Shown: positions 40,763 through 48,235, counted from the stretch's first letter. The stretch is DNA of 50,405 nucleotides from a virus (UHGV-0192279); one strand, 5' to 3'. The notes: generated by a model not told the origin, from the sequence alone. Program-made: numbers and translations.

Positions 40763-41000
40763 ACCTTACAAAATCCGGTGTAAAAATAAATATATCGGAT
40801 TTACACCTGGTTGTGAATACCTGGGCCATATTGGTTATGGCCCTTTCGGTAACTTAGGGATGATTACGATTGACGACGACGGCGACAGCAGGACGCTTGA
40901 TCTTGATACGGATGATGATTTCGAATACATCCCGCCAGTCACTTCCCGCGCCGTCGATGAATTCCTGGCAGAACAAGAAGACGATGAAGAGGACGATTAA
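40746..41000 (+). CDS. hypothetical acidic protein (up to 84 aa; start uncertain)
   Basis: Track start is TTG; first in-frame ATG is at 40857. Confidence 0.3.
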   Translation: MSASNKPYKIRCKNKYIGFTPGCEYLGHIGYGPFGNLGMITIDDDGDSRTLDLDTDDDFEYIPPVTSRAVDEFLAEQEDDEEDD

Positions 41001-41002
41001 CG

Positions 41003-41143
41003 ATGAATGACGAATACGTTAATAATTTTATTGTTATGTTTCTTAGTGAACATTGGCGCATGTTTGAACATTATTGTTTTGAGCGAGGGGAAAACGCTGA
41101 AGAAATTTATCAATATTTAGGCGGGGAGAAAGAAGATGATTGA
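41003..41143 (+). CDS. 46-aa ORF (MNDEYVNNFIVMFLSEHWRMFEHY...)
   Basis: Below track cutoff; fills gap between flanking genes. Confidence 0.25.
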   Translation: MNDEYVNNFIVMFLSEHWRMFEHYCFERGENAEEIYQYLGGEKEDD

Positions 41144-41336
41144 ATGTCTTATCCTTGCGGTGGTTCTCCTTTATATCGCTGGCGCTATCCTGATGTCTTG
41201 TTTCATCAAATCTAACGATCTCGATCGTGGTGGTCTTGAGATTACTTTCTGGCCTGTAGCAGTCTTTTACGCTTTTGTAGACGCTACGCGCATACAGATC
41301 ATGCGAGCTATTAAGGAGCGCAAAAATGGGAAATAG
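41136..41336 (+). CDS. small membrane protein (66 aa)
   Basis: Hydrophobic helices. Confidence 0.4.
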   Translation: MIECLILAVVLLYIAGAILMSCFIKSNDLDRGGLEITFWPVAVFYAFVDATRIQIMRAIKERKNGK

Positions 41337-41439
41337 CGACCATGAATATGACGGCGTTTATCAGTCGTTAGCATCACGCGCTTATTACCGCCTTGAAGGC
41401 GAAAGCGTTTTGATGCGCCTGGGTAGACTTGATCGGTGA
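41326..41439 (+). CDS. 37-aa ORF (MGNSDHEYDGVYQSLASRAYYRLEGESVLMRLGRLDR)
   Basis: AAGGAG SD 9 nt upstream; below track cutoff. Confidence 0.35.
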   Translation: MGNSDHEYDGVYQSLASRAYYRLEGESVLMRLGRLDR

Positions 41440-41519
41440 CATGAGCCATTTTTACCTATGACAGCGAAAGAAATTATTACGATGGTTAATCATGGGTACT
41501 GGCGCAAGGTTGGTGATTT

Positions 41520-41693
41520 ATGAATGAGATCGAAGACGGTGTATATGTGCATAACTTATTTGATATTGCTTACTTGCTGAAAGAGGAAAAGGTTTTTGTT
41601 ATGTCGAGTGAGCATCCTTTCTGGACTGGCGTAAACATGGATCGTGAACAGATGCAAATATTGCTTGATAATGGCCTGATAAAGAAGAAATAG
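41520..41693 (+). CDS. 57-aa ORF (MNEIEDGVYVHNLFDIAYLLKEEKVFVMSSEHPFWTG...)
   Basis: Below track cutoff; last ORF before late terminator. Confidence 0.3.
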   Translation: MNEIEDGVYVHNLFDIAYLLKEEKVFVMSSEHPFWTGVNMDREQMQILLDNGLIKKK

Positions 41694-41759
41694 AAGCCAT
41701 GATCGCGCATAAAAAACAAATAGATTAAAATACTTCCTAACAATGCGAAATTGTAATTA

Positions 41760-41786
41760 CCCGGCCCAGCGCCGGGTTTTTGCTTT
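41760..41786 (+). terminator. rho-independent terminator immediately upstream of lysis genes (tR'-like)
   Basis: CCCGGC-ccagc-GCCGGG followed by TTTTTGCTTTG; 16 nt before holin SD. Confidence 0.65.
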
Positions 41787-41801
41787 GTTGGAGGTAAATC
41801 T

Positions 41802-42002
41802 ATGCTCGACAAAATACGGGAGACGTGCGCGTATGCAGTAGGGGCCGTAACGGCCTTTTTCGGTGCGATAACCATCAATGATGTTGCTGTCTTTGTGGGT
41901 ATCTTATCAACCGCAGGTACATTTGCCGTTAACTATTACTTCAAATCACAGGAGAACAAGCGAGCGCAAGAGGAACACGACGCGCGAATGGGGAATAAGT
42001 AA
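41802..42002 (+). CDS. holin, phage-21 S-like pinholin (66 aa)
   Basis: GGAGGT SD; two hydrophobic helices and charged C-terminus resembling S21 (…YFK..E..R). Confidence 0.7.
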   Translation: MLDKIRETCAYAVGAVTAFFGAITINDVAVFVGILSTAGTFAVNYYFKSQENKRAQEEHDARMGNK

Positions 42003-42494
42003 ATGATTAGCCAATCGCTGAAGAACAAGATTATTGCTGCGGCGGCTGGTGGGGCGATCTCTATTGCGGCTGTGATGGTTAAATCATTAGAAGGCGTGGA
42101 GTACGATCCGTATCGTGATGTTATCGGTGTATGGACTGTATGTTATGGTCATACCGGAAAAGACATCATGCTTGGTAAGACTTACACGCAATCAGAATGC
42201 GATGCTTTGTTAAATAAAGATCTCCACAAAACCGCAAAAGCGATCGACCCCTATATTAAAGTCGAAATATCAGATTTTACCCGCGCGGCGCTTTATTCAT
42301 TCGCCTATAACGTAGGCGCTACCAACTTTAAAACATCAACATTATTGAAGCTACTCAATGACGGCAAGAAATCGGAAGCGTGCGCACAGCTTAAACGCTG
42401 GATCTATGCTGGTGGTAAGCAGTGGCAAGGGTTAATTAACCGTCGTGATATTGAATATGCCGTTTGCGAATGGGGTGAAACATGGACAAGGTAA
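42003..42494 (+). CDS. SAR endolysin, lysozyme GH24 family (163 aa)
   Basis: N-terminal signal-anchor-release segment [17 protein letters not shown] followed by E-x8-D-x5-T catalytic motif ([23 protein letters not shown]) as in phage 21 R. Confidence 0.9.
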
Positions 42495-42952
42495 AGGCGT
42501 TAGTTATTGCCGTTGTTGTTTGCATTATTGCCGGACTAACTGCCGTTACATGTTATTACCAGGGTGAGGCGGCAAGGTTACAGGAAGAAGTCACGGTGAC
42601 GCAAGGCGCACTAAAAACAGCAAGTAACACTATTCAGCAGATGAAGGAGCGAAACGCAGAGCTATCAAAACTTGATAAGAGGTATCACGATGAAATTAAA
42701 GCTATCAGATCTGACATTGCCGATCTTCGCGCTGGCATTGATAGCGGCGCTATCAGGTTGCACGTCAACGCCGAGCCAGTGCGATTGCTCGACAATACCG
42801 GAACCGCCAGCCGCATTGATGGAGCCACCTGTAGACTCACTGCCGACGCTGAATCGGCTTATCTATCCCTCAGAGAACAACTAAAAGAGAAAGACGCGAA
42901 GATCACCGGATTGCAGGACTACATCAAAACGCAGTGCTTACGCAAAAAATAA
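42482..42952 (+). CDS. i-spanin (Rz-like), 156 aa
   Basis: N-terminal TM helix then coiled-coil periplasmic domain; overlaps endolysin end. Confidence 0.7.
42690..42884 (+). CDS. o-spanin (Rz1-like lipoprotein) embedded in +1 frame of i-spanin (64 aa)
   Basis: ATG 42690 with AAGAGG SD; lipobox LSGC after signal peptide; Pro-rich mature part. Confidence 0.6.
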   Translation: MKLKLSDLTLPIFALALIAALSGCTSTPSQCDCSTIPEPPAALMEPPVDSLPTLNRLIYPSENN

Positions 42953-43230
42953 CAGCGCGTGGACGTGTCGCCGTTTTCGCCAGCCAGCCATAACCGGGTC
43001 AATCCTTCCCGCGAGCGACTGCGGAATAGTCAAAAACACGTAATACCGGATCATCCATCCCATTAACAGGTCGGCGCTACCTGGGTAGAAGAAAGCGCCA
43101 TCCACCAATTTTATAAAATTCTGGAAACGGTACTGATGAAGCGCCGTTTTCAGTGTTTTATAGCTGTTTTCACTCCCTGCGGTGTCGAGTTTTGCGGGGG
43201 TTATATTTTTCAGAATAGGAGATTATTCTG

Positions 43231-43773
43231 ATGGCTAAGGCTAAAGGCATTAAGTTGCCTCACTTCAAGATCCCGCTTTTTGAGCATACCACTGTTTTCT
43301 TTTGCCCGACCAGCGAGATGTTCTATGAATTTTGCGAAAAGGCAGGAATTCCGATTGAACCTGATTTCGAGTTGGCTGAAGGATTAACGCTTACTTGCAC
43401 TGGCGAGAATGGTGGTAACTTCTACGTGATCGCAGTATTCAACAATGAGTTGGGAACGCTGGTCCATGAATGCGCCCACACTACATTCCACGTTTTAAGT
43501 GATGTAGGCGTCGTGGCTACCACGGATCCTACCCATCCGGCGAATGAGACTTACGCTTACATGGTAGGCCGTATCTTCGATGCGTTTTCCCCTATCCTGG
43601 CAGAATCAAACGAAGCACAGGTTGCAGCAATGCAGGCGGCAGAAGTCGTCGATCAGGCGCTGGAACAGGCAGAACAGCCGAAGGAAGAAGAAAAGCCAGC
43701 GAAGAAAGGTAAACGTAAGCCGAAATCAAAAGAGGCATATGTGCCGCGCGTAATGAGCTTTAAACGAGGGTGA
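43231..43773 (+). CDS. HExxH-motif protein with Lys-rich C-terminal tail (180 aa)
   Basis: HECAH followed about 25 aa later by ETYAY (possible third zinc ligand); AGGAG SD; C-terminus KEEEKPAKKGKRKPKSKE. Confidence 0.5.
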   Translation: MAKAKGIKLPHFKIPLFEHTTVFFCPTSEMFYEFCEKAGIPIEPDFELAEGLTLTCTGENGGNFYVIAVFNNELGTLVHECAHTTFHVLSDVGVVATTDPTHPANETYAYMVGRIFDAFSPILAESNEAQVAAMQAAEVVDQALEQAEQPKEEEKPAKKGKRKPKSKEAYVPRVMSFKRG

Positions 43774-43775
43774 TT

Positions 43776-43844
43776 ATGTTTACTTTTCTGTTAGGCGTAT
43801 TTGTTGGTATTGCTGCCGCTGTGATCTTGATATACGGGCATTAA
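43776..43844 (+). CDS. micro-ORF 1/12: 22-aa hydrophobic peptide MFTFLLGVFVGIAAAVILIYGH
   Basis: ATG 3 nt after upstream stop; GAGGG SD. Confidence 0.4.
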   Translation: MFTFLLGVFVGIAAAVILIYGH

Positions 43845-43848
43845 TATT

Positions 43849-43944
43849 ATGGATGAGAACATCATCGCCGGACTAATCGGTGTTTCTGTATTTCTGGTGT
43901 GTTTTGTCATTGCCGTGCTGATAACCGTAAAGAGTAAATTATGA
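43849..43944 (+). CDS. micro-ORF 2/12: 31-aa peptide MDENIIAGLIGVSVFLVCFVIAVLITVKSKL
   Basis: ATG 5 nt after previous stop; hydrophobic core, basic C-terminus. Confidence 0.4.
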   Translation: MDENIIAGLIGVSVFLVCFVIAVLITVKSKL

Positions 43945-44015
43945 ACGCCTACGATCTCATCTGGTTATTGGTGCTCATCGTAGGTATTTGCGTGAACATT
44001 TACAGGCTGTGGTGA
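43941..44015 (+). CDS. micro-ORF 3/12: 24-aa peptide MNAYDLIWLLVLIVGICVNIYRLW
   Basis: ATGA overlap with previous stop; AAGAG SD; paralogous N-terminus with micro-ORFs 5 and 7. Confidence 0.45.
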   Translation: MNAYDLIWLLVLIVGICVNIYRLW

Positions 44016-44020
44016 AAAAT

Positions 44021-44095
44021 ATGATTGACCCGGTCGTTATCCTTTCTGCATGCGTCGCTGTATGGCTGGCGGTCATGATATTCATCGAAAGCTAA
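44021..44095 (+). CDS. micro-ORF 4/12: 24-aa peptide MIDPVVILSACVAVWLAVMIFIES
   Basis: ATG 6 nt after previous stop; GGTG SD-like. Confidence 0.35.
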   Translation: MIDPVVILSACVAVWLAVMIFIES

Positions 44096-44105
44096 AGGTA
44101 TCAAC

Positions 44106-44180
44106 ATGAATATTTACGATCTCATCTGGTGCTCATCACTCGCCGTCATTATGTATCTGTGGTTAAAGAATGTTGTATAG
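44106..44180 (+). CDS. micro-ORF 5/12: 24-aa peptide MNIYDLIWCSSLAVIMYLWLKNVV
   Basis: AAAGG SD; shares MN.YDLIW with micro-ORF 3 (DNA-level tacgatctcatctggt repeat). Confidence 0.45.
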   Translation: MNIYDLIWCSSLAVIMYLWLKNVV

Positions 44181-44188
44181 GTGACGGC

Positions 44189-44287
44189 ATGGATATATTC
44201 GAATTACTGGCGATTATGTGCGGCATGATGTTAGGCATTGTCGCCATAATCATCATCATCGGTCTGGTTGTAGGTAGTATCAAATGA
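44189..44287 (+). CDS. micro-ORF 6/12: 32-aa peptide MDIFELLAIMCGMMLGIVAIIIIIGLVVGSIK
   Basis: AGGTGA SD 5 nt upstream. Confidence 0.45.
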   Translation: MDIFELLAIMCGMMLGIVAIIIIIGLVVGSIK

Positions 44288-44364
44288 ACGCCTACGAAAT
44301 GCTATTGCTGGTGGCTGCCGTTGCAGTTATTGCCGTGGACGTATACCGGGAGACTAAAAAATGA
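44284..44364 (+). CDS. micro-ORF 7/12: 26-aa peptide MNAYEMLLLVAAVAVIAVDVYRETKK
   Basis: ATGA overlap; shares atgaacgcctacga with micro-ORF 3. Confidence 0.45.
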   Translation: MNAYEMLLLVAAVAVIAVDVYRETKK

Positions 44365-44429
44365 AATGGCTTGATTTATTTTTCCTGACCGTTGCGATTG
44401 TTCTTACCATGACCGCGTTGACTCAATAG
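44361..44429 (+). CDS. micro-ORF 8/12: 22-aa peptide MKWLDLFFLTVAIVLTMTALTQ
   Basis: ATGA overlap; GGGAGA SD. Confidence 0.45.
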   Translation: MKWLDLFFLTVAIVLTMTALTQ

Positions 44430-44437
44430 GTGAATAT

Positions 44438-44512
44438 ATGGAAACCATCGAGGCTGTATTATTCGTATGTATTGCAGCGGCTGTTATTGTGGGGTTTATT
44501 ATCAATGTCTGA
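44438..44512 (+). CDS. micro-ORF 9/12: 24-aa peptide METIEAVLFVCIAAAVIVGFIINV
   Basis: AGGTGA SD 6 nt upstream. Confidence 0.45.
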   Translation: METIEAVLFVCIAAAVIVGFIINV

Positions 44513-44528
44513 CGGTGATTTCTTAATT

Positions 44529-44573
44529 ATGGCTATATGCACACTGTTAGCCGTTATCGTTTTTTTTGCGTGA
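44529..44573 (+). CDS. micro-ORF 10/12: 14-aa peptide MAICTLLAVIVFFA (may be truncated at T7 homopolymer)
   Basis: Weak SD; ORF ends just after a run of 7 T. Confidence 0.2.
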   Translation: MAICTLLAVIVFFA

Positions 44574-44582
44574 GAAAGCATC

Positions 44583-44726
44583 ATGTCTGAATTCCTCAAT
44601 CTGCTAACGTTCTTGCTTTGCGCTGGTCTGCTTATTGCCGCATTAATGTTATGCGTATACGTGATTGTAATGATTACCGCGCTTATTTACAGAGAAGCAA
44701 AACAGAGATTTAAGGTTAAACAATGA
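44583..44726 (+). CDS. micro-ORF 11/12: 47-aa peptide MSEFLNLLTFLLCAGLLIAALMLCVYVIVMITALIYREAKQRFKVKQ
   Basis: Long hydrophobic span then basic tail; GAGAAAG SD-like. Confidence 0.45.
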   Translation: MSEFLNLLTFLLCAGLLIAALMLCVYVIVMITALIYREAKQRFKVKQ

Positions 44727-44806
44727 AAAAGCTATTCGACTGGTTGGAAGTATTAACATACTGTGCAAGTTTTGTTGCTTGCGTATATATCATCAATAAA
44801 TATTGA
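44723..44806 (+). CDS. micro-ORF 12/12: 27-aa peptide MKKLFDWLEVLTYCASFVACVYIINKY
   Basis: ATGA overlap; AAGGT SD. Confidence 0.45.
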   Translation: MKKLFDWLEVLTYCASFVACVYIINKY

Positions 44807-44816
44807 GAGGTGAATT

Positions 44817-45302
44817 ATGGCCCGCACTAAAAATGCAAAAGCTGACGACAAAAAGCCAGCCGCTAAAAAGGTGGGCCGTCCGCATGGTTATACCGAAGAA
44901 AAAGCATTAGAAATCTGTGAGCTGGTGGCGGACGGTCAGAGTGTTAACAAAATTTCGAAAATGCCTGGTATGCCTACCCGTTCCACAATCCTGAAATGGT
45001 TTAGAGACGTGCCGGAATTCTCGGACATGTACATGCACGCGAAGGAAATCGGCTTCGAGGTATTAGCTGATGAGATCCTCGATATAGCTGATGATGCTAA
45101 GAACGTTGATAAAGACCAACTACGCCGCCACCAACTAATGATTGAAACGCGTAAATGGTTACTGGCAAAACTGCAACCGCGTAAATATGGCGAACGCGTC
45201 ACACAGGAGATCGTCGGCAACAAGGAAGAAGCACCCGTCCAGGTTGAAGTCACGAAAGAAGAGATCGCCCGCATCGTCCAGGAAGTAGAAGACGAGGTGT
45301 GA
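44817..45302 (+). CDS. terminase small subunit (161 aa)
   Basis: GAGGTG SD; N-terminal HTH-like DNA-binding region (GRPHGYTEEKALEICELVADGQSVNKISK) typical of small terminases; directly upstream of large terminase. Confidence 0.75.
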   Translation: MARTKNAKADDKKPAAKKVGRPHGYTEEKALEICELVADGQSVNKISKMPGMPTRSTILKWFRDVPEFSDMYMHAKEIGFEVLADEILDIADDAKNVDKDQLRRHQLMIETRKWLLAKLQPRKYGERVTQEIVGNKEEAPVQVEVTKEEIARIVQEVEDEV

Positions 45303-46783
45303 TTATGTTGTCCATCAAAGAAAGGGTTATTCAATCCAAATGTGAAAACGATGGCTTGTTCTTCAACCGTTATTTCTATAAGCAGGCCAACGGCACGAAG
45401 ATGTTAATCTCAGGCCATCACATAGCCATACGCGATGCGCTACAACGCGTTATCAATGGTGAGATTACCCGTCTCATCATTAACATTCCCCCAGGGTACG
45501 GTAAAACCATGATTGCGACCATTAACATGATGGCGCGGTCCCTCGCAATAAATCCCCGCACACGTTTCCTTCACGTTTCCTATTCCGACAATCTTGCGTT
45601 ACTCAATTCCTCGACAGTCAGAAACATGATTTGCTCGCAGGAATACCAGAAGTTATGGCCTATGAAGATCCGCAATGATGCCAACAGTAAATCAATGTGG
45701 TGGACGGAACAGGGAGGCGGGATATATGCCGCATCTTCACAGGGCCAGATAACAGGCTTCCGTGCTGGTTACATGGAGCCGGGCTTCAACGGCGCGATGA
45801 TTATCGACGACCCATTAAAGCCCGCTGACGCTTACTCTGATGTGATGCGTGAGAAGGTAAAGACCAACTACAACGACACGCTGGCTTCACGTCTGGCAGT
45901 ACAAACAACGCCAGTGATCGTTATCATGCAACGCATCCACTACGATGATTTGTCCGGCTACCTGTTACGCGGTGGAAGCGGTGAGAAATGGTATCACCTC
46001 AACCTGCCTGTGAAGATTGATAACAGCGTCGACTATTGGGATCTGTACCCGGAAAATGAATTCGCTATTCCTATTGCTCACAACCTGCCGGACGGCTGGC
46101 TATGGCCTAAAAAGCACAATGACAGCCACGAAGCCGGACTAAAGGCGCACCGCAGGTCATTCGAAGCCCAATATATGCAGCGCCCGCGTAAATTCGACGA
46201 GGAAGGCGCATTGTGGACGGAAGCGATGATAACCGCTGCGCACCGGATGCAGATAACGCAGGACAAGATTCGCACGGTAATAGCCATCGACCCGGCTACA
46301 ACATCATCTGATGAATCGGACGAAACCGGGATCGTGGCATGTTCCGCCTATGGTGGCGGCAAGTACGCACAGTATTCAGTAGACGGTGACTACTCAGGCC
46401 GCATGTCTCCTAACGATTGGGCGCAAGCCTCAATGAACGCTTATAACATCCATGAGGCTGATGCGATAGTTATCGAAACCAACCAGGGCGGCGAAATGGC
46501 AGTGGCCACGTTGCGTAATGCCGGATTCAAAGGCCGCATTGTTAAGGTGCACGCAAGCAAAGGTAAATTCGCCCGCGCCGAGCCAATATCGGCACTGTAT
46601 GCACAGGGAAGGGTAGCCCACACTGGCAGCCTGTACACGCTGGAAAATCAAATGATGGAATACGTGCCAGCTACCGCTAAAAAATCACCCGACCGCCTCG
46701 ACGCGATGGTATGGGGTATCACTGAATTAAGCCAGCCACAGGCTGTGGGCCTCATGTTACCTAAGCGCCTGCGCGGATTTTAA
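45299..46783 (+). CDS. terminase large subunit (494 aa)
   Basis: Size, position between small terminase and portal, ATPase-like N-terminal region (PPGYGKTM) and acidic nuclease-like C-terminal region. Confidence 0.75.
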   Translation: MIMLSIKERVIQSKCENDGLFFNRYFYKQANGTKMLISGHHIAIRDALQRVINGEITRLIINIPPGYGKTMIATINMMARSLAINPRTRFLHVSYSDNLALLNSSTVRNMICSQEYQKLWPMKIRNDANSKSMWWTEQGGGIYAASSQGQITGFRAGYMEPGFNGAMIIDDPLKPADAYSDVMREKVKTNYNDTLASRLAVQTTPVIVIMQRIHYDDLSGYLLRGGSGEKWYHLNLPVKIDNSVDYWDLYPENEFAIPIAHNLPDGWLWPKKHNDSHEAGLKAHRRSFEAQYMQRPRKFDEEGALWTEAMITAAHRMQITQDKIRTVIAIDPATTSSDESDETGIVACSAYGGGKYAQYSVDGDYSGRMSPNDWAQASMNAYNIHEADAIVIETNQGGEMAVATLRNAGFKGRIVKVHASKGKFARAEPISALYAQGRVAHTGSLYTLENQMMEYVPATAKKSPDRLDAMVWGITELSQPQAVGLMLPKRLRGF

Positions 46784-46861
46784 AAACCATCTCACAATCC
46801 CCCATAAGTTTTTCCATTTTTCGCGTAGCAACGCGTAAACATGTATTCAGGAGTAAACATT

Positions 46862-48235
46862 ATGCCATCCAATTTAGAATTGGCGGTTAATGCTGCCTTG
46901 TCACAACGCCAGGCGGCCTTTGCCCGCTATGCAGCCGCTAACCCATTCTCAATGGGTATTGATGCAAAACGTGATGCTGCGTGGAGTGAATACGGATTCA
47001 AAGAAGAAATCACCTATGACGATTTATACAAACTGTATCGTCGCGGTGGTATCGCTCACGGTGCTATTGAGAAGATCATCACTACGTGCTGGCGCACCAG
47101 GCCAACGCTGATCGAAGGTACGGAAGACGAGAAAGCAGAAAAGGAAACGCCGTGGGAAAGAGAAATCAAAAAACGATTTGATAATCGTTTCTGGCGCGTC
47201 ATAGCTGAATGCGATCGCCGCCGCCTCATTGGTCGTTATGCTGGCCTGTTAATTCACGTCAGGGATAACCAGCCGTGGGATCGGCCAGTGACGAAAGGTG
47301 TAGGCATTGCCAAATTTACCCCTGTATGGGCTGGTGCTCTTACACCGAAGGACTTCGAAGAAAACCCGGATAATGAAAACTATGGCCTGCCGACATGGTG
47401 GGAATACAAGGAGCGCATTAACAGTAAGACCATAGCAAGAAAGATACATCCCGATCGCATATTTATCTTCGGTGATTATTCTGATGATGCCATCGCTTTC
47501 CTTGAGCCGCCCTATAACGCATTCGTTTCGCTGGAGAAAGTGGAAGGCGGTAGCGGTGAGTCATTCCTGAAAAACGCCGCGCGTCAACTGGCTATCTCGT
47601 TCGATAAAGAAATTGATTTCCGTTCCCTGGCTGCAACATACGGTTGCGACGTTACAGAGCTACGCGAAAAATTCAATGAGGCGGCAGAGGATATAAACAA
47701 GGGCAATGATGTGATGATGGCATTGCAGGGAGCTACCGTTAGCCCGCTGGTCACTGCCGTAGCCGATCCGTCCGCTACCTATGACGTCAACCTGCAAACC
47801 GCCGCCGCTGGCATCGACATTCCAACGCGTATCCTGGTTGGGAATCAGCAGGGTGAGCGTGCATCAACCGAAGACCTCCGCTACTTCAATAACCGCTGTA
47901 TGACCCGCCGGGAGGAAATAGGAGGCGAGCTTGAGGAACTATTCCGCAAGATGGCAGATCTCCGCCTTATCAGTATGCCAGTCGACGTGTCGGTACTGTG
48001 GGACGACCTTAACGCCATGACGAAAGCCGAGCTACTCGACGCGGCATACAAAATGGCGCAAATCAATCAGGCATGTCTCGCCACAGGTGAACAAGTATTC
48101 GACGGTGACGAGATTCGCGAAGCTGCCGGGTATGAAGGGCCAACGCAGGAAGTAGAACTGGACGACGAGGAAAACAACAATGAAGGTGAAGAAAATAATC
48201 AGGCGAATACCTCCAGCCGCGATAATGCCATCTAA
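46862..48235 (+). CDS. portal protein (457 aa)
   Basis: ATG 46862 with AGGAG SD (track start 46841 lies within SD region); size, position, acidic C-terminus. Confidence 0.7.
   Translation: MPSNLELAVNAALSQRQAAFARYAAANPFSMGIDAKRDAAWSEYGFKEEITYDDLYKLYRRGGIAHGAIEKIITTCWRTRPTLIEGTEDEKAEKETPWEREIKKRFDNRFWRVIAECDRRRLIGRYAGLLIHVRDNQPWDRPVTKGVGIAKFTPVWAGALTPKDFEENPDNENYGLPTWWEYKERINSKTIARKIHPDRIFIFGDYSDDAIAFLEPPYNAFVSLEKVEGGSGESFLKNAARQLAISFDKEIDFRSLAATYGCDVTELREKFNEAAEDINKGNDVMMALQGATVSPLVTAVADPSATYDVNLQTAAAGIDIPTRILVGNQQGERASTEDLRYFNNRCMTRREEIGGELEELFRKMADLRLISMPVDVSVLWDDLNAMTKAELLDAAYKMAQINQACLATGEQVFDGDEIREAAGYEGPTQEVELDDEENNNEGEENNQANTSSRDNAI

Follow-up and report, generated by a model that had tools for sequence, protein, structure and literature searches.

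The window, by which we mean the whole 50,405-nt stretch of DNA analysed here, carries at positions 43776–44806 a run of 12 head-to-tail micro-ORFs on the + strand, each with an ATG start, that encode peptides of 22–47 aa and tile 94% of this stretch (Table 1). The array extends unbroken from the stop of a 180-aa HExxH gene to the start of terS (small terminase subunit), and its placement between the lysis cassette and the terminase, as given in a preliminary description of this DNA, is borne out by the ORF list and by Pfam matches. Just upstream of the holin gene, a promoter-like site is followed by an intrinsic-terminator-like hairpin, a pair that resembles the pR'-tR' start of the lambda late operon; the mEp021 and mEp010 records have an annotated terminator at the position matching this hairpin. 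The alignment of the SAR-type endolysin to 3HDE and 4ZPU takes in its Gly/Ala-rich N-terminal segment, and Rz/Rz1 are followed, ahead of the HExxH gene, by 278 bp that lack ORFs and contain a terminator-like hairpin. In a consensus scan of 41000–45500, we observed no + strand promoter-like site inside the array, and we infer that the array belongs to the predicted late transcript, downstream of the lysis cassette. Four of the five promoter-like matches in this interval are on the minus strand inside the array, with no minus-strand terminator inside or just beyond it. The small terminase gene has its own strong Shine–Dalgarno (SD) sequence (AGAGGTGA). In most of the RefSeq E. coli relatives that we inspected, PGAP annotates nothing in the gap that the array fills. 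The preliminary description had compared the junction with those of lambdoid phages; the phage belongs instead to the non-lambdoid mEpimmI group, a family of temperate E. coli siphophages that is reported to be prevalent in human gut samples (PMC11893012).

Table 1. Features of the array and its surroundings (positions in the window; KD19, Kyte-Doolittle 19-residue value).
Feature	Position	Strand	Product	Evidence and remarks
Promoter-like site	41645-41672	+		Consensus scan
Intrinsic-terminator-like hairpin	41759-41777	+		Consensus scan
Holin	41802..42002	+	Class II (HP1-family) holin, 66 aa	PF16080 E=5e-15, above cut-off; PGAP 'holin' in relatives
Endolysin	42003..42494	+	SAR-type, homologue of phage 21 R and RrrD	PDB 3HDE E=5.5e-64, 4ZPU E=5e-65
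Rz	42482..42952	+	i-spanin	ORF list; PF03245 on orthologue; PGAP 'i-spanin Rz'
Rz1	42672-42884	+	o-spanin	Inside Rz, other frame; lipobox LSGC
HExxH gene	43231..43773	+	180-aa HECAH protein (residues 79-83)	phrog_1365 E=2e-30
Micro-ORF 1	43776..43844	+	22 aa, MFTFLLGVFVGIAAAVILIYGH; family 10	SD GAGG at -6; KD19 2.72; family 10 or variant 10b in 28/56 arrays
Micro-ORF 2	43849..43944	+	31 aa, MDENIIAGLIGVSVFLVCFVIAVLITVKSKL; family 4	KD19 3.06; pN/pS 0.36; family 4 or 4b in 50/56 arrays
Micro-ORF 3	43941..44015	+	24 aa, MNAYDLIWLLVLIVGICVNIYRLW; family 12	ATGA overlap with ORF2; paralogue of ORFs 5 and 7; pN/pS 0.25
Micro-ORF 4	44021..44095	+	24 aa, MIDPVVILSACVAVWLAVMIFIES; family 0, near-core	53/56 arrays; pN/pS 0.22; SD GGTG at -6
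Micro-ORF 5	44106..44180	+	24 aa, MNIYDLIWCSSLAVIMYLWLKNVV; family 5	38/56 arrays; pN/pS 0.33; KD19 1.63, marginal hydrophobicity
Micro-ORF 6	44189..44287	+	32 aa, MDIFELLAIMCGMMLGIVAIIIIIGLVVGSIK; family 9	27/56 arrays; pN/pS 0.21; two GxxxG motifs
Micro-ORF 7	44284..44364	+	26 aa, MNAYEMLLLVAAVAVIAVDVYRETKK; family 1, near-core	54/56 arrays; ATGA overlap; pN/pS 0.24
Micro-ORF 8	44361..44429	+	22 aa, MKWLDLFFLTVAIVLTMTALTQ; family 2, near-core	50/56 arrays; ATGA overlap; SD GGAG at -8; pN/pS 0.20
Micro-ORF 9	44438..44512	+	24 aa, METIEAVLFVCIAAAVIVGFIINV; family 6	pN/pS 0.40
Micro-ORF 10	44505..44573	+	22 aa, MSDGDFLIMAICTLLAVIVFFA; family 7	pN/pS 0.26
Micro-ORF 11	44583..44726	+	47 aa, MSEFLNLLTFLLCAGLLIAALMLCVYVIVMITALIYREAKQRFKVKQ; family 11	15/56 arrays; pN/pS 0.29
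Micro-ORF 12	44723..44806	+	27 aa, MKKLFDWLEVLTYCASFVACVYIINKY; family 3, terminal gene	ATGA overlap; pN/pS 0.05; KD19 1.51
Small terminase subunit (terS)	44817..45302	+	Sf6 type	PF20901 E=2e-37

The six-frame ORF list confirms the earlier statement that no frame across 43776–44806 holds an ORF of at least 60 aa, the longest that overlap the stretch being 52 aa (with a GTG start) and 47 aa. The preliminary description had counted 12 ORFs of 14–47 aa; the twelve consecutive ORFs stand, with a length range that is really 22–47 aa, as what was taken for a 14-aa peptide 10 forms the end of a longer, 22-aa ORF (MSDGDF...) that has a conserved start in relatives and shares 8 nt with ORF9 (ATGTCTGA). 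This overlap occurs 41 times across arrays. Four starts by ATGA overlap were correctly recognized (ORFs 3, 7, 8 and 12). An SD-like core precedes 11 of the 12 starts, as had been reported, the exception being the window copy of micro-ORF 2, which has no recognisable SD; the spacing is 3–10 nt instead of the 5–10 nt first given, and several cores are just 3 nt long. At the two ends of the array, the last codons of the HExxH gene hold the SD of micro-ORF 1, with 2 nt between stop and ATG, and 10 nt separate the stop of micro-ORF 12 from the ATG of TerS. When we subjected the stretch to 1000 dinucleotide-preserving shuffles, hydrophobic ATG-ORFs of at least 20 aa numbered 1.7 on average and 5 at most, versus the 12 observed; the minus strand of the stretch has none, and every other 1-kb stretch in the window has three or fewer. 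The 12-ORF pattern is thus far beyond chance.

The 180-aa protein encoded immediately upstream was correctly noted as an HExxH protein: among 16 homologues, residues H79, E80, H83 and E106 do not vary, giving an HExxH...E signature, and in one source a homologue bears the name 'PolyVal Metallopeptidase superfamily'. We found no sequence match to it in Pfam, NCBIfam or the PDB. In an AF2 model with a pLDDT of 55, these four residues are carried by low-confidence helices that span 76–91 and start at 106. Its ORF encodes neither a membrane segment nor a signal peptide, and from its sequence it is probably a stand-alone zincin-like metallopeptidase. Gene and array are paired in all 68 loci that we collected; in mEp013, the C-terminal part of the protein is replaced beside an inserted HNH gene.

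These 68 loci, in each of which the gap between the HExxH gene and an Sf6-type terS holds micro-ORFs, comprise 56 distinct arrays with gap lengths of 319–1155 bp and 3–13 micro-ORFs apiece. About 20 peptide families follow one another in a fixed order, and only four of them are present in at least 89% of arrays. Families 6/6b and 7 have equal array counts (39/56) and are neighbors in each of the listed array orders. The last gene belongs to family 3 or to its paralogue, family 15, in 55 of the 56 arrays; in the remaining one (L009), the family 3 gene begins with GTG and an extra acidic ORF comes after it. The terminal gene always lies 10–11 nt ahead of terS or of one extra ORF. Gains and losses involve whole genes and fall precisely at the SD-ATG junction, with deletion junctions at the start codon. 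The cultured phages mEp021, mEp010, mEp013, mEp044, mEp515, mEp554 and MagusPhagus differ in their versions of the array. The fact that gene number ranges from 3 to 13, and that the laboratory phage mEp021 is viable with an array of just five genes, indicates that most array genes are dispensable. Several families are paralogous, with paralogy z-scores of up to 10.7. Peptides 3, 5 and 7 do share the N terminus MN(A/I)Y(D/E), and the DNA-level repeats reported for them were recovered as a 25-nt repeat in ORFs 3, 5 and 7 at 84% and 72% identity; together with the paralogy scores, this repeat backs the earlier proposal that the array grew by duplication.

To assess selection family by family, we calculated pN/pS over 22 loci, in which 15 of 16 peptide families had sequence variation; values for all 15 fall between 0.05 and 0.49. 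The pooled value is 0.28 in frame, compared with 0.91 and 1.20 in the two shifted + frames and 0.14 for the genes flanking the array. Variable sites number 121, 88 and 215 at codon positions 1, 2 and 3, respectively (chi-square p=4.5e-14). Synonymous divergence is 0.32 in the array and 0.40–0.46 in the flanks and, being near the flank level, makes no extra constraint at the DNA or RNA level evident. Across the 56 distinct arrays, start and stop are at the family positions in 482 of 521 gene instances, and about 10 of the 521 are truly broken. In L004, the closest relative, a nonsense codon interrupts micro-ORF 6. Across 523 ORFs, SD cores of 4 nt or more stand before 79% of starts, as against 16% of control positions; the distance from the preceding stop to the start is between −14 and +18 nt in 96.6% of cases, and 31% of starts overlap that stop. 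The search for frame-disrupting indels in close relatives, proposed in the preliminary description, likewise favors coding: in the closest full-length relative (94.4% identity), all five single-nucleotide indels are in spacers or last ORF codons and none is in a core. By these comparative measures, the peptide sequences are under purifying selection and the micro-ORFs are genuine genes, not products of chance, and we infer that they are translated.

The hydrophobic character of the products is strong overall and uneven in detail. Eleven of the 12 window peptides pass the Kyte-Doolittle 19-residue criterion (>1.6), and the summed Hessa score is negative in seven. By these two measures, peptides 5, 7 and 12 are marginal as membrane helices, micro-ORF 12 being the least hydrophobic of all; in all, three to five peptides have marginal hydrophobicity, and family 3, the most conserved, is one of them. 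The earlier view that each product is a single transmembrane helix thus holds for most of them and not for these. Uncharged cores measure 13–33 residues, not the 15–25 first proposed. The C-terminal flank, said to be often basic, is net positive in seven of 12 peptides and only 0–4 residues long in 10; that of ORF7 has eight residues and a net charge of +1, and the only clearly basic tail is that of ORF11, with 11 residues and a net charge of +4. At the other end, Asp or Glu is found among the first five residues of 10 of the 12 peptides. Small-xxx-small helix-packing motifs are present in eight of the 12, and the peptides, at 22–47 aa, are almost wholly helix, with no leader or cleavage motif. 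These features support the description of the products as small hydrophobic peptides that are mostly predicted membrane helices.

We found no meaningful match for the peptides in Pfam, PHROGs or NCBIfam, including any holin or antiholin family; ORF1 gives a very weak match to a type I toxin in NCBIfam (E=0.29), and an Rfam scan of 41500–45500 returned just one sub-threshold match, to an S15 leader. A protein database search with the 47-aa peptide (family 11) retrieved only 11 clusters, all 76–96% identical, and a profile search with this family against 1.84 billion representatives found two, so no remote homologues are detectable. Scans of IMG/VR with the HExxH protein, its alignment and a family-0 DNA motif each returned the same ~47 contigs, and no array homologues were found outside the mEpimmI phage group by IMG/VR, tblastn or profile searches. 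Compared with the holin, SAR domain, Rz and Rz1 of the phage itself, the peptides show one weak match, between family 2 and the Rz N terminus (z=4.6), on which we do not rely. The 2025 paper on mEpimmI phages does not mention the array region (PMC11893012), and a literature search on phage loci with small membrane ORFs in tandem turned up nothing equivalent, in agreement with the initial remark that no lambdoid lysis-terminase junction with such an array was known. The cases of rV5 and a Microbacterium phage were considered and are not comparable to the array. Taking these results together, we assign a probability of about 90% to the reading that the locus is one polycistron of genuine, translationally coupled genes for hydrophobic peptides of 20–47 residues, mostly single membrane helices, and that it is confined to the mEpimmI group. 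Identity, anatomy and membrane insertion taken jointly make a likely, if less secure, proposition.

Several characterized systems share part of this architecture. The M13 gVII-gIX-gVIII genes and the Pf3 coat gene encode single-helix proteins of 32–50 aa, arranged head to tail with overlapping stops and starts, that insert without a signal peptide and with the N-end out, aided by acidic N-terminal tails. The array has the same tiny head-to-tail single-helix genes, with N-out insertion there as a prediction; however, the M13 and Pf3 products are virion subunits of membrane-extruding phages and come from three genes, whereas the array has a variable gene set and mEpimmI phages are tailed siphophages without a known membrane step in assembly. 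The staphylococcal psm-alpha operon has four tandem genes for ~21-aa peptides, each with its own SD, and is like the array in packing several paralogous micro-ORFs with their own SDs into one short operon. PSMs differ in being amphipathic secreted cytolysins with a dedicated exporter, whereas most array peptides are hydrophobic throughout and the locus has no exporter gene close by. Enterobacteria also have small single-pass inner-membrane proteins, such as YohP, MgtS, AcrZ, KdpF and CydX, which were found by RBS models and comparative genomics. With this class, the array shares a length of 20–50 residues, one hydrophobic helix, an SD and ATG for each gene, the lack of a signal peptide, neglect by gene callers and conservation as peptides; each of the defining features, namely its own start and RBS, a hydrophobic segment and peptide conservation, is found here, with membrane location as a prediction. 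Despite these similarities, the YohP-type proteins are scattered and mostly encoded by single chromosomal genes, whereas 3–13 genes are chained in a phage late operon in the array, where whole genes are gained and lost, members are unrelated or paralogous, and searches turned up no similarity to library families (for context on small membrane proteins, see PMC12542507 and PMC10903887). Known late membrane proteins encoded beside holin, endolysin and spanin genes are likewise small, late and lysis-adjacent, and the lysis cassette of this phage is of the phage 21 type. They number 1–4, however, with 60–150 aa, usually 2–4 helices and charged tails, in contrast to up to 13 one-helix peptides that are parted from the lysis genes by the HExxH gene and the terminator-like gap. 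No peptide matches a holin or antiholin profile, against E=5e-15 for the true holin at 41802, and the highly charged C-terminal domain of holins is missing from most of the array peptides.

How else the locus might be read depends on how much weight is given to the peptides themselves. A T-rich spacer, a packaging site or the decayed gene of a large multi-pass membrane protein would explain both the blank PGAP annotation in most E. coli genomes and a T-rich + strand with an AT skew down to −0.25, but such a non-coding reading is highly improbable, as it is contradicted by the selection, indel, SD and shuffle evidence, and start, stop and SD are retained ORF by ORF in the 56 arrays, in different frames. 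Phages of the P22 and Sf6 class have their pac site in or near the terS gene, and the TerS here is of the Sf6 type (PF20901); the 319–1155 bp length variation is also ill-suited to a cis-acting site. The possibility of a cos or pac element, raised in the preliminary description, is thereby answered in the negative: the length is not fixed, whole genes come and go, and the stretch evolves as coding sequence. Selection also weighs against the idea that the peptides are irrelevant and that the coupled ORFs hold ribosomes on the late mRNA from the HExxH gene to terS, blocking Rho-dependent polarity, or set the dose of TerS by re-initiation, since a pure ribosome track needs neither pN/pS values of 0.05–0.49 nor indel-free cores, and terS has an SD of its own. 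We consider this idea unlikely, even with an unbroken, tightly coupled chain from the HExxH stop to the terS start, a terminal gene at constant distance from terS or one extra ORF, and an array length that is free to vary. Tandem type I toxins (ibs/sib, ldr/rdl, zor/orz) resemble the array in being tiny, very hydrophobic and present as tandem paralogues, which is the signature used in type I toxin searches (PMC2887945), and the ORF1 match and the four minus-strand promoter-like matches also speak for tandem toxins that are each restrained by an antisense RNA. Each of these known toxins, however, has a transcription unit to itself, with a long 5' UTR and its own antisense RNA, and the units lie hundreds of nucleotides apart (PMC2887945), whereas the array is one co-directional, coupled polycistron with spacers of about 10 nt, and start-to-stop spacings of −14 to +18 nt leave no room for individual promoters or 5' UTRs. 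There is no minus-strand terminator and no Rfam family match, a synonymous rate about as in the flanks makes no antisense-RNA constraint evident, and the minus-strand matches could merely mirror the A/T-rich complement of hydrophobic codons. With no antisense transcription unit evident, the type-I-toxin-like role suggested initially is improbable. A similarly poor case can be made for the other suggested role, that the peptides are substrates or partners of the adjacent metallopeptidase, like enzyme-processed precursors. The genes adjoin and are translationally coupled, the HExxH...E signature is invariant, and the pairing holds in 68 of 68 loci. Yet no array follows the homologues in the P22-like phages inspected by tblastn (ST64T gp49 and HK620 hkcC), the peptides barely exceed one helix and have no leader or cleavage motif, the enzyme has neither membrane segment nor signal peptide, and the neighborhood contains lysis and packaging genes only, with no transporter or immunity gene near. 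We therefore regard this role, too, as very doubtful.

For what a coupled array of membrane peptides does, our best guess is tentative and draws on array position and peptide chemistry: the peptides may tune the state of the inner membrane and, with it, the timing of lysis. The genes would be read from the late transcript that starts at the promoter-terminator pair upstream of the holin, a process that would need antitermination, so that the peptides would be made together with the lysis and virion proteins. Given acidic N-ends, cores free of charge and C-ends that are neutral to basic, the peptides are predicted to enter the inner membrane unaided by a signal peptide, with the N-end outside and the C-end inside, much as for the Pf3 coat protein and M13 pVII and pIX. 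Acting as helix-binding or membrane-loading agents, they could tune the energised state of the membrane, which in turn would set when the pinholin/SAR-endolysin system fires; families 0, 1, 2 and 3/15 would form the working core and the variable families would be modifiers. Against lysis timing, Rz/Rz1, the 278-bp gap and the HExxH gene part the array from the lysis genes, the array is coupled to the terminase side, and most peptides are without the charged C-terminal domain typical of holins.

About equally likely is that the partners of the peptides are inner-membrane proteins of the host, not the lysis machinery of the phage, with the variable set as a repertoire; possible targets are DNA-entry routes of rivals (exclusion), abortive-infection effectors (counter-defence), or proteases, transporters and sensors (host takeover). 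A gene set that varies from phage to phage at a site with core genes on both sides, as in these 56 distinct arrays from 68 loci, is typical of accessory or conflict loci, and the name that one source gives to the HExxH neighbor denotes a domain class from phage-host conflict proteins (PMC5512222). The small-xxx-small motifs favor this possibility as well, and strong conservation (pN/pS down to 0.05) fits specific partners. The sequences are conserved and not diversifying, however, and late timing is poor for counter-defence. Exclusion would pay most in a lysogen, where expression is not expected because the array has no + strand promoter-like site and a terminator-like hairpin lies upstream; moreover, a lipoprotein-based exclusion system encoded elsewhere has already been characterised in mEpimmI phages (PMC11893012). 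More speculatively, and with correspondingly lower confidence, the array could be a library of transmembrane 'binder' micropeptides that is shuffled by recombination. Each single-helix peptide would match its own inner-membrane protein in the host, such as a defence effector, an entry route of a rival phage, a protease or a transporter; new members would arise by duplication, possibly also de novo from T-rich sequence, and phages would exchange them at the SD-ATG junctions.

Few parts of bacterial and phage genomes are annotated as poorly as small membrane proteins, and the array is an entire operon segment missed by standard annotation. It is also a clean example of the duplication and loss of micro-genes, with junctions at start codons, and its about 20 short conserved families, naturally present or absent among similar phages, constitute a ready-made genetic experiment. 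If the peptides tune lysis, they would add a new layer to the pinholin/SAR-endolysin model. If they instead bind host membrane proteins, they would represent a new class of phage effector and possible tools, and, if the library reading is true, the array would be an accessory locus of a kind new for phages, as well as a natural supply of specific inhibitors of membrane proteins.

Between the gene for the HExxH protein and the small terminase gene (terS), no frame of the array contains an ORF as long as 60 aa. As the preliminary description had read it, the + strand resolves into 12 consecutive ATG-initiated ORFs (ORF1 to ORF12); they measure 22-47 aa. The upper end of the length range given there stands, but the lower end of 14 aa does not, because the peptide counted at 14 aa is the C-terminal part of a 22-aa ORF, and relatives conserve this longer form. 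Four ORFs (3, 7, 8 and 12) start by ATGA overlap and eleven of the 12 have an upstream Shine-Dalgarno (SD)-like core, both as originally counted; ORF10 overlaps ORF9 by 8 nt, and the remaining ORFs begin 2-10 nt past the previous stop. The + strand is T-rich (AT skew of about -0.15 to -0.25). Hydrophobic ATG-initiated ORFs of at least 20 aa number 12 on this strand, covering 94% of the stretch, and 0 on the minus strand; 1000 dinucleotide-preserving shuffles gave a mean of 1.7 such ORFs with a maximum of 5, and any other 1-kb stretch of the window contains at most 3. The pattern is not due to chance. By the Kyte-Doolittle 19-residue criterion, 11 of the 12 peptides are membrane-helix candidates, whereas the summed Hessa scale gives seven clear candidates, with peptides 5, 7 and 12 marginal. 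Asp or Glu occurs among the first five residues in 10 of the 12, and the C-terminal flanks are neutral or basic.

We collected 68 loci with both flanking genes: 47 IMG/VR contigs, 20 regions from GenBank or RefSeq, and the window. The IMG/VR contig L022 is identical to the window throughout this locus and probably represents the same contig. These loci reduce to 56 distinct arrays of 319-1155 bp, in each of which 3-13 hydrophobic micro-ORFs tile 68-96% of the gap. Almost all of the 523 micro-ORFs (96.6%) start between -14 and +18 nt from the preceding stop, and 31% of the starts overlap it, by ATGA in 94 cases and by 8 nt in 41. Of the starts, 79% have an SD core of at least 4 nt lying 3-11 nt upstream, vs 16% of the non-start positions of these arrays. 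The chain is continuous from the HExxH gene, whose last codons contain the SD of ORF1, to the terS side, where 48 of the 56 arrays place the terS ATG 10-11 nt after the last micro-ORF. Eight of the 56 carry an additional 47-aa ORF, acidic and non-hydrophobic (MNDEELKIADEIRKALDSAENNETIY...), between the last micro-ORF and terS; PGAP annotates this ORF and skips the micro-ORFs.

Selection acts on the encoded peptides. Across 22 loci, the ratio of nonsynonymous to synonymous change (pN/pS) is 0.05-0.49 in all families with sequence variation (15 of 16). Pooled, it is 0.28 in the annotated frame vs 0.91 and 1.20 in the two shifted + frames; the sole other low frame is the antisense frame that shares wobble positions, where 0.37 is as expected. 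The flanking genes have a pN/pS of 0.14. Variable sites number 121, 88 and 215 at codon positions 1, 2 and 3 (p=4.5e-14). Synonymous divergence is 0.32 in the array, close to the 0.40-0.46 of the flanks, and nothing suggests an overlapping DNA or RNA function. Start and stop lie at the family positions in 482 of 521 gene instances; the others mostly have just an added upstream ATG, and about 10 are truly broken. The preliminary description had named frame-breaking indels in close relatives as a result that would count against its reading. The closest full-length relative, the KKa019 prophage (94.4% identity), differs at 58 positions, five of them 1-nt indels, and all five fall in spacers or within a few codons of an ORF's end, leaving the hydrophobic cores untouched; the outcome is therefore in favor of coding. 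Spacers together with the five terminal codons of every ORF account for about 22% of the stretch, which by simple arithmetic puts the chance of all five indels falling there at about 0.0005. These data show the micro-ORFs to be genes, conserved and coupled, that occupy a late-operon position and encode very small hydrophobic peptides.

The peptides form about 20 families that follow one constant order: 10/14/13, 4, 12, 0, 5, 20, 9, 1, 8, 2, 6, 7, 8b, 11, 3/15. Families 1, 12 and 5 are paralogous, as are 2, 8, 8b and 18, 3 and 15, 6 and 6b, and 10 and 13, with alignment scores 4-11 sd above composition-preserving shuffles. A 25-nt repeat shared by the starts of ORFs 3, 5 and 7 confirms the DNA-level repeats first noticed there. 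Where genes 5 and 9 are both absent, the spacer normally found before gene 5 is joined straight to the gene 1 ATG, and where only gene 9 is absent the junction lies at its ATG; genes are thus gained and lost at the SD-ATG junction, and the chain that is left can always be translated. This placement could come from recombination between similar 5' ends, from selection for intact chains or from both. Families 0, 1, 2 and 3/15 are present in 50-55 of the 56 arrays and the other families in 1-50. Family 3 or 15 is terminal in 55 of 56, and family 3 shows the tightest constraint (pN/pS 0.05) yet the lowest hydrophobicity; family 3/15 may work unlike the rest. The smallest array (L029, IMGVR_UViG_3300045988_084845; 319 bp) retains three intact micro-ORFs, of families 10, 4 and 3, plus a family 7 remnant; being nearly a natural deletion, it could act as a minimal-array control.

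Features of the lysis-terminase region in the window, and insertions or added ORFs in related loci (locus coordinates)
Feature	Position	Remarks
Second run of small ORFs (+)	41003-41700	46, 66, 37 and 57 aa; upstream of late promoter-like site; similar small hypothetical genes annotated in relatives
66-aa protein	41136-41336	clear hydrophobic N-terminal helix; one of the small-ORF run
Promoter-like site, then terminator	41645-41777	directly upstream of holin
Holin, HP1-family		PF16080
Endolysin		close relative of phage 21 SAR endolysin (3HDE, E=5.5e-64); N-terminal SAR segment in alignment
Rz and Rz1		3' of endolysin
ORF-free gap, 278 bp	42953-43230	between Rz and HExxH gene; terminator-like hairpin
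Hairpin and U-run	near 43124-43165	counterpart of mEp021 'TERM_6'
HExxH protein (+)	43231-43773	180 aa; 3' of ORF-free gap
Micro-ORF array (+)	43776-44806	3' of HExxH gene
Sigma-70-like matches (minus strand)	44075-44526	at 44104, 44283, 44487, 44526
Weak Rfam S15-leader match	44764-44845	end of micro-ORF 12 and start of terS
Small terminase, Sf6-type (+)	44817-45302	PF20901; 3' of array
Large terminase		after small terminase
Portal	46841-48235	PF06381 on orthologue
47-aa acidic ORF (examples)	L012 3460-3603; L017 3664-3807; L009 3607-3750	
Inserted HNH endonuclease genes	L003 1936-2421 (mEp013); L069 2752-3273	free-standing
Intein PF14890	L069 8491-8534 onward	in Mu-F-like head protein of this more distant relative; precomputed Pfam matches

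Matches to the 1-kb array DNA are confined to Escherichia phages MagusPhagus, mEp010, mEp554, mEp013, mEp044, mEp021 and mEp515, together with prophages of 35 among 5426 complete E. coli genomes. These are mEpimmI phages, described in 2025 as a family-level group, non-lambdoid and Nus-dependent, that is prevalent in human gut samples (PMC11893012), and the label 'lambdoid' originally given to this junction is therefore wrong. Upstream of the lysis genes, a strong intrinsic-terminator-like hairpin lies 87 nt past the promoter-like site, where relatives' records also annotate a terminator. The layout resembles lambda pR'-tR', and the late operon therefore probably depends on an antiterminator. 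Our scan found no + strand promoter-like site within the array, which we infer to be read within the late transcript. On the minus strand, four of the five sigma-70-like matches in 41000-45500 lie inside the array; no minus-strand terminator follows them, and they may be no more than a by-product of hydrophobic codons, whose complement is A/T-rich.

The ORF-free gap folds better than shuffles (z=-2.6), and in relatives the same spot holds insertions, an ORF of 603 nt in both L006 and L014 and one of 303 nt in L016. One of the inserted HNH genes separates the HExxH gene from the array, and there the HExxH protein no longer matches in its C-terminal part; the other sits between endolysin and Rz. 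Mobile genes seem to use this junction region as a landing site. Further downstream, PGAP labels the portal 'anti-CBASS protein Acb1 family protein' throughout the RefSeq relatives inspected; the window's copy, scanned against NCBIfam, gave no match, and the name looks like an annotation carry-over.

None of the peptides matches Pfam, PHROGs or NCBIfam. The 47-aa peptide (ORF11) has only 11 close database relatives, and its profile retrieves two clusters in 1.84 billion representatives. The family-0 DNA motif occurs in IMG/VR only on contigs with the HExxH gene, in one copy each, which marks the array, within the sequences searched, as specific to this lineage. PGAP annotates nothing there in most E. 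coli genomes inspected, PHANOTATE-based phage records call a few of the ORFs but read some of these in an incorrect frame, and the mEpimmI group paper (PMC11893012) nowhere mentions the region. The S15-leader match (22.9 bits vs a gathering score of 39.5, E=0.029) is most likely chance.

The neighboring HExxH protein has invariant H79, E80, H83 and E106 and belongs to phrog_1365, a family of unknown function. One homologue carries the source name 'PolyVal Metallopeptidase superfamily', a domain class treated in PMC5512222. The protein has no match among Pfam, NCBIfam or PDB sequences, and its AF2 model is too poor for use.

Pf3 coat and M13 pVII/pIX offer a known mode of membrane insertion. 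By that model, the charge pattern suggests that the peptides would need no signal peptide to enter the inner membrane and that their acidic N-end would lie outside. Our leading guess, at a probability of roughly 0.35, is that they modulate the membrane state and the firing time of the pinholin/SAR-endolysin system: the local lysis system belongs to a type sensitive to membrane energization, its predicted transcript includes the array genes, and four families occur in nearly all arrays. About as likely as a role in lysis timing, and likewise doubtful, is that the peptides bind host inner-membrane proteins for exclusion, counter-defense or host takeover, toward which the varying gene set of the arrays and the helix-packing motifs in 8 of the 12 peptides point.

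The remaining explanations are improbable. That the array is purely a track for translation conflicts with the selection seen at the peptide level. The tests that we ran speak against type I toxins, which we consider slightly less probable still, and also peptidase substrates, to which we give a little less credence again. Homologues of the HExxH protein in P22-like phages are not followed by a micro-ORF array, whether they occupy the same lysis-terminase junction, as in ST64T, or another place, as in HK620, and the earlier suggestion that this protein cleaves the peptides is therefore backed by adjacency alone. Least probable of all is a non-coding stretch or decayed gene, which the tests contradict.

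The elements of the array are of a known kind, small single-helix membrane proteins, which are also familiar as single genes in phage lysis and exclusion. For a chain of up to 13, in constant order and with whole genes gained and lost at start codons, we found no parallel in the papers and family libraries searched. Formally, the closest cases are the psm-alpha operon, M13 gVII-gIX-gVIII and type I toxins in tandem, and the array differs from each of them in architecture or chemistry. Its anatomy is solid, would be surprising to specialists and is amenable to direct tests in cultured phages.
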